Of a stretch of 64,000 nucleotides of DNA, positions 21,019-22,980 are shown piece by piece. The stretch comes from an uncultured cyanobacterium. GTDB taxonomy: Bacteria > Cyanobacteriota > Cyanobacteriia > Cyanobacteriales > CAWUOF01. The position numbers were made by a program, and so were the translations under genes. The DNA lies in assembly GCA_963744145.1 (NCBI GenBank), contig CAVUSO010000001.1:4352001-4416000 (forward strand), written 5' to 3'. The notes under the pieces are model-generated. The model saw only the letters and a list, made by a program, of their open reading frames with translations, had not been told where the DNA came from and did not search any database. Within the stretch, counting starts at the first letter, position 1; each line of letters opens with the position of its first letter.

Positions 21019-21594
21019 TTATTGTTGCATTGGTTGATTCTTATGATCAAGAAATTTGGTGGGATTTTCTGGATCTTCTTCCCATTTTAATGGGTTTTCT
21101 TGGATATAAAGTTTAATATTTTCATAGGCGCGATCGCTCCGAATAATAGTTTCATAATAATTCCTTTGCCAAATAGTTCCGGAATTTCTAGTAATAGTAT
21201 TTACCCGTCGCGTCGAAACTGATTTAAAATTTTGGACGATCGCTCCTAATGAGTCTTTTTTCGTACCATTAGGCATAGAATTTTTTGTTAAATCAGCAGT
21301 ATGACTATTAATTAAATCAGAATGATCAATCAAGCAAATTATGCCATGTAAATGATTAGGCATAACCACGAAATCATCCAGTCTAATTTTAGTAAAATTA
21401 TTCGGTAAATTTAACCAAACTTCCTGCACTATTTTACCGATAACACTAAGGGAAATAATCCCTCCTTTAATCTCACCAAATAAGCAATTTTTTTGAACAG
21501 AACAAATTGTCACAAAATAAGCACCAGCGCTGGCATAATCATAACGAGGTAAACGAATTGAGCGACGGTGATGAACATCAGGATTATAAGACAT
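21019..21594 (-). CDS. REP-associated tyrosine transposase (RAYT, Y1 HUH)
   Basis: RRSIRLPRYDY, AYFVTIC, HUH motif FVVMPNHLHGII, IWQRNYY, catalytic YIQENP. GTAG-REPs lie immediately upstream. Confidence 0.92.
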   Translation of the reverse strand: MSYNPDVHHRRSIRLPRYDYASAGAYFVTICSVQKNCLFGEIKGGIISLSVIGKIVQEVWLNLPNNFTKIRLDDFVVMPNHLHGIICLIDHSDLINSHTADLTKNSMPNGTKKDSLGAIVQNFKSVSTRRVNTITRNSGTIWQRNYYETIIRSDRAYENIKLYIQENPLKWEEDPENPTKFLDHKNQPMQQ

Positions 21595-21635
21595 AAAAAA
21601 ACATAACCTAAATTTTTCATAATTTTATCCCCTCC

Positions 21636-22980
21636 GTAGGGGCAAAGCATTTCGGCGCAGAAATTATTGCCTTAACACCGAAAACTATGACCGAAATGCT
21701 TTGCCCTCAGCCATACCTGCATCCAACCGATCGACCAAATCAACCCATATCTGCATTCAAGCGATCAACTAAATCAACCAATAGTTGGAAAATCGTCGCG
21801 GGAGCTGGCCTAATTATTTCCTCCTTAACAATTATCGCGGGGGCTGGGCGAAGCATTCCCCAATTAAATTTATCCATGACCTGATCAGTGATCGTGGGGA
21901 ATGCTTCGCCCCTACGGCGATCGCCCTTCTTTTCCATCAACCTAAAACAGAATTTGAGCCGTCTTTGTAGGGGCAAAGCATTTCGGCGCAGAAATCATGA
22001 CTTTAACCCCGAAAATTATGACCGAAATGCTTTGCCCTCAGCCAGGTCTGCATCCAACCGATCGACCAAATCAACCCATATCTGCATCCAACCGATCGAC
22101 CAAATCAACCCATATCTGCATTCAAGCGATCGACCAAATCAACCCATATCTGCATCCAATCGATCGACCAAATCAACCCATATCTGCATTCAAGCGATCA
22201 ACTAAATCAACCAATAGTTGGAAAATCGTCGCGGGAGCTGGCCTAATTATTTCCTCCTTAACAATTATCGCGGGGGCTGGGCGAAGCATTCCCCAATTAA
22301 ATTTATCCATGACCTGATTAGTGATCGTGGGGAATGCTTCGCCCCTACGGCGATCGCCCTTCTTTTCCATCAACCTAAAACAGAATTTGAGCCGTCTTTG
22401 TAGGGGCAAAGCATTTCGGCGAAAAAATCATGACTTTAACGCCGAAAATTATGACCGAAATGCTTTGCCCTCAGCCAGGTCTGCATCCAACCGATCGACC
22501 AAATCAACCCATATCTGCATCCAATCGATCGACCAAATCAACCCATATCTGCATTCAAGCGATCAACTAAATCAACCAATAGTTGGAAAATCGTCGCGGG
22601 AGCTGGCCTAATTATTTCCTCCTTAACAATTATCGCGGGGGCTGGGCGAAGCATTCCCCAATTAAATTTATCCATGACCTGATCAGTGATCGTGGGGAAT
22701 GCTTCGCCCCTACGGCGATCGCCCTTCTTTTCCATCAACCTAAAACAGAATTTGAGCCGTCTTTGTAGGGGCAAAGCATTTCGGCGCAGAAATCATGACT
22801 TTAACGCCGAAAATTATGACCGAAATGCTTTGCCCTCAGCCAGGTCTGCATCCAACCGATCGACCAAATCAACCCATATCTGCATCCAACCGATCGACCA
22901 AATCAACCCATATCTGCATCCAACCGATCGACCAAATCAACCCATATCTGCATCCAATCGATCGACCAAATCAACCAACA
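21636..22980. repeat. BIME-like tandem REP array with nested 34-bp repeats
   Basis: Units start with GTAGGGGCAAAGCATTTCGG at 21636, 21967, 22400 and 22765 (lengths 331, 433, 365, partial). They contain 2, 5, 3 and 4 copies of (T)CTGCATCCAACCGATCGACCAAATCAACCCATA. The first three units also contain a GGGCGAAGCATTCCC...GGGAATGCTTCGCCCCTAC pair. Confidence 0.95.

Follow-up and report, generated by a model that had tools for sequence, protein, structure and literature searches.

How does an array of REP hairpins acquire two nested levels of tandem repetition, and what part does the RAYT gene next to it play? The question arises from a locus in a 64,000-nt stretch of DNA from an uncultured cyanobacterium (the window, to which all positions given without a contig name refer), in which REP doublets are repeated in tandem upstream of a RAYT gene and a 34-bp sequence is repeated a variable number of times inside each unit. 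At a probability of about 0.68, we regard the locus as a subclass-2.4 REPtron, in which the RAYT is predicted to spread REPs while the nested variation in copy numbers likely stems from slippage in the host and unequal recombination.

Architecture of the array

The array, 1.35 kb in size, starts 41 bp upstream of an intact RAYT gene (21019..21594, minus strand; ORF of 191 aa). The 41-bp leader (21595..21635) extends from the ATG of the gene to the first GTAG and is kept in both RAYT-less paralogous loci described below. The first unit consists of REP-A copy 1 (21636..21706, plus strand; GTAG foot, 16-bp stem, 35-nt loop), two 34-mers that are duplicated copies of the REP-A 3' tail (21716..21783, plus strand), a constant spacer of 62 bp that takes in the REP-B tail (21784..21845, plus strand), and REP-B copy 1 (21846..21915; GTAG foot on the minus strand, 17-bp stem, 32-nt loop; CATTCCCC subtype). 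A tail-to-tail linker of 51 bp with a HIP1 site (21916..21966) leads to the second unit, in which REP-A copy 2 (21967..22037, plus strand) is followed by five 34-mers (22047..22216, plus strand), REP-B copy 2 (22279..22348, minus strand) and the linker (22349-22399). The third unit is built alike from REP-A copy 3 (22400..22470, plus strand), three 34-mers (22480..22581, plus strand), REP-B copy 3 (22644..22713, minus strand) and the linker (22714-22764). The fourth is truncated: REP-A copy 4 (22765..22835, plus strand) and four 34-mers (22845..22980, plus strand) are present, REP-B is absent, and relative to the paralog about 165 bp, which there hold spacer and REP-B, have been lost behind the last 34-mer.

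A first, sequence-only reading of this region had proposed four double-hairpin units with a pair of hairpins for each REP. Because the fourth unit lacks REP-B, the array comprises three complete head-to-head REP doublets and one partial unit, and each of the supposed hairpin pairs turned out to be one long REP, that is, a single hairpin with a stem of 16-17 bp and a loop of 32-35 nt, so that a unit is one head-to-head doublet. The order REP-A, 34-mers, REP-B had been read correctly, apart from the constant spacer (21784-21845) between the 34-mers and REP-B, which recurs in units 1-3. In RNA folding, the two hairpins were far more stable than shuffled sequences (z = -5.5 and -6.3; equal stability in 0 of 200 shuffles). 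REP-A and REP-B of one unit differ in their inner stems, and therefore each REP folds on itself and the doublet does not form one long REPIN hairpin.

The other structural claims were borne out by measurement. These were an intact RAYT with the array starting 41 bp away, unit lengths of 331, 433 and 365 bp, 34-mer counts of 2/5/3/4, a linker of about 50 bp, a CGATC core (found in 14 of 14 copies of the 34-mer), and sub-variants in differing order, which were seen in all four units (a-b / c-c-d-e-b / c-e-b / c-c-c-f). In the alignment, adjacent units differ by one gap each, of 102 and of 68 bp, and both lengths are exact multiples of 34. The REP units within the array are 98-99.5% identical and have evidently been homogenised recently. 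Altogether, the array consists of tandem, locally homogeneous, extragenic copies of an inverted REP doublet, the arrangement of a BIME-2-type array or of tandem REPINs.

Not a single read or contig covers the array from end to end, so that the exact copy numbers are those of the assembly. Nevertheless, the array is unlikely to be an artefact, and the chance that the assembly inflated a simpler repeat is negligible: the units carry unit-specific substitutions and distinct orders of 34-mers, an independent, diverged sister array exists, and short-read contigs of run X1 bridge the junctions 34-mer/spacer/REP-B, REP-B/linker/REP-A, and last 34-mer/unique flank. The depth was 15-17 on pieces of the array compared with 3-5.5 on the flanks, values that serve as a rough guide only. 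A contig of X2, a run from another study, bridges the RAYT start and REP-A. The contigs of both runs are short, none extending across the whole array, and X1 possibly derives from the source sample, yet shows a few differences. Of the sequence words sought in two further runs (X3 and X4), almost none were present.

The RAYT belongs to subclass 2.4

The 191-aa protein carries the motifs NHLH (H81, H83), IWQRNYYE and YIQENP with the catalytic Y163. Its scores remain below the curated cut-offs of the respective families, with 20.1 bits against 23 for PF01797 (Pfam) and 59.4 against 80 for NF047646 (NCBIfam). However, PF01797 is matched by all 11 aligned relatives, and H81, H83, W142 and Y163-x-x-x-NP (Y163-IQE-NP in this protein) are invariant in 11 of 11. 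A sequence search of the PDB yielded only 4ER8, at E 0.21, and therefore a fold search was performed with a predicted model (pLDDT 74); the top match was E. coli TnpA-REP (4ER8, E 1.4e-6), followed by IS200/IS608 enzymes.

Motifs, length and a variable loop characterize subclass 2.4 in Table 1 of Quentin et al. 2018 (PMC6006769). NHLH, WQ and YIQENP are close variants of its NH[IFV]H, WQ and YIxNNP, the length of 191 aa is near the typical value of about 194 aa, and the loop after the HUH strand indeed varies, the distance from HUH to WQ ranging from 44 to 87 aa across the clade (one mis-parsed row left out). Judged by these features, the protein is a TnpA-REP of subclass 2.4 (Bertels group 4). 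By analogy, it is predicted to bind single-stranded GTAG hairpins and to cleave them at C|T, a reaction for which the consulted parts of the literature report demonstrations on ssDNA for groups 2.2 and 2.5 only (PMC3333891, PMC8266576).

The gene is single-copy in the genome and is not an IS; the next paralog, at 46% identity, is flanked on either side by a REP family of its own. The dN/dS values of 0.22 and 0.34 against the two closest homologs indicate that the gene is under purifying selection. REPs inserted inside the gene, which are frequent in subclass 2.4 and not universal, were found in the relatives L006, L007, L008, L010, L012 and L018, and none is present in the RAYT of the window.

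The REP family and its distribution

The REPs of the locus belong to a catalogued family: for Anabaena cylindrica AFZ56567.1 (subclass 2.4), the supplement of Quentin et al. 2018 (PMC6006769) lists GTAG REPs of 69-71 nt whose outer stem is the same. Near-identical REPs flank L006, a member of the RAYT's clade. The association of family and clade was examined on a quick tree of 75 proteins, which comprised 73 of the 80 fetched loci and two proteins from this genome, seven short or motif-less ORFs having been dropped. The REP family was carried by 22 of the 75 rows, all of them in one clade of 25 rows (SH-aLRT 91), and its distribution required 3 changes compared with 19.4 when shuffled, a comparison in which the REP label took in Pseudanabaena-type variants and which shows clustering, not co-evolution. 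This co-occurrence of REPs and RAYT clade was among the points on which the initial interpretation had been declared open to refutation. Its view of the site as a RAYT/REP locus of a cyanobacterium, in which two REP subtypes are combined with a VNTR at a second level, is supported. The RAYT of the window groups with L001 and L002 (support 98), and all three have the rare REP-B subtype. At L001, doublets of the same order lie on both sides of the gene, and the 5' GTAG is located about 40 bp from the start.

Of 41 genomes of the order, 11 contain the exact REP motif, this genome has 430 copies of it, and the reversed motif gave 0 matches in both searches. The 40 relatives searched held no genome of the same genus, so comparison between strains was confined to the short X1 and X2 contigs. 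A genome-wide count, which the earlier reading had suggested, gave 456 family REPs on contig C1, arranged in 220 clusters that include 113 head-to-head doublets. Eight clusters (8-14 REPs) are larger than the array of the window, and four others have the same size. In the 17 arrays of at least 6 REPs, block indels of 19-48 bp frequently set units apart in length, and the steps of 68 and 102 bp in the window are the largest. Another member of the family in the window is a separate, dispersed doublet (18334..18637) with its own 58-bp arm-plus-tail duplication (18452-18566).

Could the locus be the template from which the several hundred dispersed doublets were copied? The sequence-only reading had considered it a possible source locus. 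Of the nine RAYT- or Y1-like loci checked in the genome, the RAYT of the window is the only one with family REPs within 1 kb, and the REP-A stem type is common to 148 copies in the chromosome. However, the REP-B subtype accounts for only 6 of the 456 copies, all of them in the window array and its sister array, and instead matches the REPs that neighbor L001 and L002, the closest foreign RAYTs. In addition, the REPs of the locus are among those least like the dispersed copies, with best distant matches of 75-76% (REP-B) and 86-89% (REP-A) compared with medians of 96%, and the flanks and the linker are private to the locus. A common flank motif precedes 277 of the 456 REPs overall and 0 of the 13 REPs of the two sister arrays; carriage by a miniature transposon, looked for as this flank motif only, was hence not seen in either array. 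Because the REP-B subtype is restricted to the two sister arrays, the locus does not appear to be the template of the dispersed copies, and a role as source locus is highly improbable. The RAYT gene may still be the only enzyme of the REP family, acting in trans.

Sister arrays and the history of the locus

A search for the 34-mer with up to 6 mismatches allowed gave 16 copies beyond the window, every one of them at C1:6922802-6929145. They identify a sister array (C1:6928103-6929310) with three complete doublets and 5/6/5 copies of a variant 34-mer. Its flanks carry the same genes as the window, namely the 3' end of a TPR gene on one side and a small gene on the other, and of the RAYT only the start and the leader are left. 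In the window, the TPR-gene end is a frameshifted remnant (20875..20979, plus strand) that is found also at the paralogous loci C1:6927947 and C1:6922622, and the small gene encodes a coiled-coil protein of 104 aa with a weak DUF1664 match (23039..23353, plus strand), and its duplication accompanied that of the array; the paralog lies at C1:6929404 and has 82% nt identity. A third copy of the segment, at C1:6922622-6922900, is a relic in a more advanced state of decay. Thus, the segment TPR remnant-RAYT leader-array-small gene is present twice in the genome in addition to the relic, with the RAYT in the window copy only. The distal flank of the paralog was considered as the 3' end of a second RAYT, but this match was not significant (122 and 520 of 2000 shuffles were as good).

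Within each of the loci the arrays are 96.5-99.5% identical, whereas the identity between the loci is 89-91%. The higher identity within than between loci shows that the nesting predates the duplication of the segment and that each array has been homogenised since. The earlier description of the locus as recently amplified therefore applies to the last rounds only; the nesting is older and already present in the sister array at 89-91% identity. The comparison with the paralog also accounts for unit 4, which corresponds to a full unit minus about 165 bp including REP-B.

The 34-mer is a duplicated REP tail

The origin of the 34-mer could be traced by comparison with the tails of the dispersed REPs. 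Alignments that score above the 99th percentile of random DNA were obtained with 121 of 157 other REP-A tails and with 0 of 247 REP-B tails, and the 34-mer is hence a duplicate of the ordinary REP-A 3' tail. Tail duplications of this kind have arisen about 10 times independently in this genome: repeats of 22-64 bp are found on the 3' side of the hairpin in 26 arrays of 10 families and on the GTAG side in one array of one family. This bias towards the 3' side has a binomial p = 0.012, a post hoc value that includes one family of ten that is perhaps unrelated. Many of the duplications start within about 10 bp of the 3' foot of the hairpin. Hairpins that lack the GTAG foot bear repeats as well (11 arrays, 2 families), and in a second long REP family, which has its own RAYT, no polarity was found (2 families versus 1).

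Nested repeats are not confined to this genome: of 19 related RAYT loci with a hairpin, 6 contain them. Genome G036 has repeats of 39 bp x4.4 beside its RAYT, 63 bp x6.9 and 61 bp x2.7, and G019 has one of 73 bp x4.8. The closest homologs, L001 and L002, have plain doublets without a 34-mer.

The junctions of ten duplications were inspected, and five of them were cleanly resolved. These share ATAT, A, CC, A or T, and none is a C|T cleavage site, so that in these five of ten a C|T rule for the duplication ends finds no support. One of the five junctions that were not cleanly resolved, that of a 24-mer tail repeat, has CT at both ends.

The 3' side of the RAYT gene

In accordance with the sequence-only reading, no REP is present on the 3' side of the RAYT: a GTAG-footed hairpin was not found within 1.5 kb of the 3' end. 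REPs on both gene sides are a criterion for REPtrons, and here they occur on the 5' side only. The 3' end of the gene is colinear with L001 up to the start of the 3' doublet of L001. Where L001 has the GTAG of this doublet, the window reads CCTAC (21003..21007, minus strand), which is the sequence expected if C|T before GTAG, as in L001, were joined with C|TAC of the far REP. Motifs of the CC|TAC type are expected by chance in about 0.3-2% of 7-nt windows. The CCTAC remnant is possibly the footprint of a lost 3' doublet. A plain deletion at a 3-bp microhomology yields the same CCTAC product.

Mechanism of amplification

Slippage and unequal recombination drive the dynamics of tandem repeats. 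In the explanation that we favor, the RAYT is predicted to nick and spread GTAG-footed REPs, and the two levels of repetition would be the work of the host. The locus would descend from an ancestor with doublets on both sides of the RAYT, like L001. A REP tail would first have been duplicated by slippage at a few bases of microhomology beside the hairpin, and the doublet together with its linker would have been duplicated thereafter. Slippage and unequal exchange would go on changing both copy numbers, and the 3' doublet and the last REP-B would have been deleted. We take the array to be, most likely, neutral or selfish DNA and not a functional RNA array.

Alternatively, the RAYT itself might drive the amplification. 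A nick in single-stranded DNA 3' of the hairpin would provide a 3'-OH that primes strand-displacement synthesis, and a second nick and joining would copy the tail or the doublet, as in the model for the amplification of E. coli BIMEs, for which linker cleavage and strand transfer were reported in vitro (Ton-Hoang 2012, PMC3333891). The polarity of the tail duplications (10 families versus 1), their frequent start within about 10 bp of the 3' foot, and the CC|TAC remnant at 21003-21007, which fits RAYT-type excision, would agree with such a role. However, CT is shared by none of the five cleanly resolved junctions, and this favors slippage over duplications made by the RAYT; the RAYT-less paralog is equally variable, though action of the enzyme in trans is conceivable; polarity is lacking in the second long REP family, and repeats are also found on GTAG-less hairpins. 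Two features confound the 3' bias: the 3' side coincides with the inner spacer of the doublet, and the 5' side often carries the conserved flank motif. The remnant is likewise explained by the microhomology deletion. On balance, amplification by the RAYT seems unlikely, and it is kept as an alternative because of the 3' bias and the CC|TAC remnant. A more specific and similarly doubtful proposal is that subclass-2.4 RAYTs make minisatellites directionally: a nick 3' of a long REP would prime repeated copying of the tail, and the 34-mer, its counterparts of 22-78 bp and the CC|TAC site would be the record of TnpA-REP amplification and excision, which so far have only been modelled. A 3' bias is not an obvious consequence of slippage at a near-perfect hairpin and could reflect nicking by the RAYT.

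A function of the array as RNA is very unlikely, be it as a transcribed guide or regulatory array (CRISPR-like, or a sponge) or as a tuner of the expression of the RAYT or its neighbor by copy number. The position between divergent genes directly upstream of the RAYT, the stable RNA hairpins with terminator-like matches on the minus strand, and the retention of the nesting in two loci might be taken to indicate such a function. However, the array contains no unique spacers between its repeats, as a CRISPR-like organization would demand; instead, all sequence between the hairpins is repeated, and the 34-mers, which reproduce the REP tail almost identically, are unstructured on the plus strand (z -0.8). 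Furthermore, an Rfam scan gave only weak miRNA hairpin scores, far below the gathering cut-offs, promoter-like sites numbered 4 compared with 7.8 in shuffles, L001 and L002 do without the 34-mer, and the short ORFs over the array differ between units. A coding role for these ORFs was likewise considered and rejected, since they are presumably by-products of the repeats.

Comparison with known systems

Doublet arrays beside RAYTs have been described before, as have this class of enzyme and this REP family, and the array is not exceptional in this genome. The locus resembles the subclass 2.4 REPtrons (Quentin 2018, PMC6006769; RAYT group 4 of Bertels et al. 2017, bioRxiv 10.1101/119735) in protein motifs, length, the variable loop and the cyanobacterial host, as well as in the GTAG foot, three G-C pairs at the base of the stem, and more than one REP subfamily per gene. 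It differs in that a REP inside the gene and double-foot REPs are missing and REPs are present on the 5' side only. Tandem arrays and inner minisatellites, both of which occur here, are not discussed in the consulted parts of Quentin 2018 (PMC6006769).

The BIME-2 and atypical BIME arrays of E. coli and the yafM REPtron (PMC3333891) also comprise tandem inverted doublets of two REP subtypes, with units conserved within a locus, variable linker lengths and copy numbers, and BIMEs next to the transposase. However, the REPs of the present locus are about 70 nt long with a loop of 32-35 nt, compared with 30-40 nt and a bulge in E. coli, the enzymes belong to subclass 2.4 and 2.2, respectively, and the inner linker varies here by a regular 34-bp minisatellite. 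In P. fluorescens SBW25, near-identical doublets and their flanks occur in tandem, up to four plus an extra REP, and form clusters beside each RAYT (Bertels and Rainey 2011, PMC3116915). In contrast to these REPINs, the REPs described here fold singly and enclose a VNTR, for which the sections of that paper available to us describe no counterpart. GTAG repeats of various bacteria, cyanobacteria included, similarly prefer head-to-head dimers and form large tandem clusters with variable flanking DNA (Di Nocera et al. 2013, PMC3733652); that study covers 24 GTAG families, and the motif of the locus was not found in four of its supplement files searched as text. In the literature searched, whose coverage was partial, with some supplements and figures outside it, no description of minisatellites derived from REP tails inside doublets was found. 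The earlier view that the architecture had not been described thus holds, within that literature, for the inner tail minisatellite only; the REP family is catalogued and tandem doublet arrays at the side of RAYTs are in print.

The locus can serve as a test case for the amplification of REP arrays and the role of the RAYT in vivo, since one genome combines an intact enzyme with hundreds of substrates, a sister array that lacks the RAYT, some ten independent tail duplications biased to the 3' side, and a possible excision footprint. Should RAYTs make minisatellites directionally, the locus would supply ready substrates for the modelled TnpA-REP reactions. It adds a further REPtron to those of cyanobacteria and provides a potential VNTR for strain typing.

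Paralogous and apparently duplicated RAYT loci

Two paralogs of the RAYT locus on the chromosome contig (G000:C1:6928103-6929310 and 6922622-6922900) have retained the RAYT leader and the start codon, with the gene itself being absent. The homology of these paralogs to the window starts at a HIP1 site (position 20876). In a contig from the short-read run X1 that carries the window-type linker, two letters of the REP-B loop (positions 22676 and 22678) agree with the paralogous array, either because the strains differ or through gene conversion involving the window locus and the paralogous locus.

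At the related Microcoleus locus (L001:2744-4931), the order is doublet, RAYT, doublet, linker, doublet, followed by the start of a second RAYT, apparently a tandem duplication of the whole REPtron.

Loop inserts and possible REP-flanked cargo

Throughout the genome, the loops of the REPs of this family frequently contain an insert, a 24-bp repeat unit with the core CCCTGAGCGTAGTCGAAG, present as one copy or in runs (in the window at 54132-54210). With these inserts, the hairpins are 69–71, 93–95, 119, and 143 nt long. The unit is similar to the small dispersed repeats of cyanobacteria.

A toxin-antitoxin pair of Microcystis is reported to be located between two 152-bp direct repeats, which the portion of the article considered here does not term REPs (PMC7935541). 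The stem of the window-family REP is present in both repeats as given there, and the pair is possibly a REP-flanked cargo.

Other RAYTs and features of the window

A second intact 2.4-type RAYT (G000:C1:6661747-6662307) is flanked at either end by REPs of a separate long family, which has 222 copies on the chromosome contig, similar to the Arthrospira rows in the supplement of Quentin 2018 (PMC6006769). Furthermore, a methyltransferase-like ORF of 1226 aa (G000:C1:6347661-6351341, minus strand) includes an in-frame internal RAYT domain that exceeds the cut-off of the NCBIfam family NF047646. GTGG-footed hairpins were observed on the flanks of this RAYT domain/ORF.

Within the window, positions 18720-20822 (plus strand) encode a protein of 700 aa that has repeated modules at its N-terminus and ends in a C39-like peptidase domain. 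There are also two other short tandem repeats, one with two 50-bp copies containing a GGGCGGGTT stem (50207-50307), and one with about three copies of a 33–42-bp unit (3264-3368).
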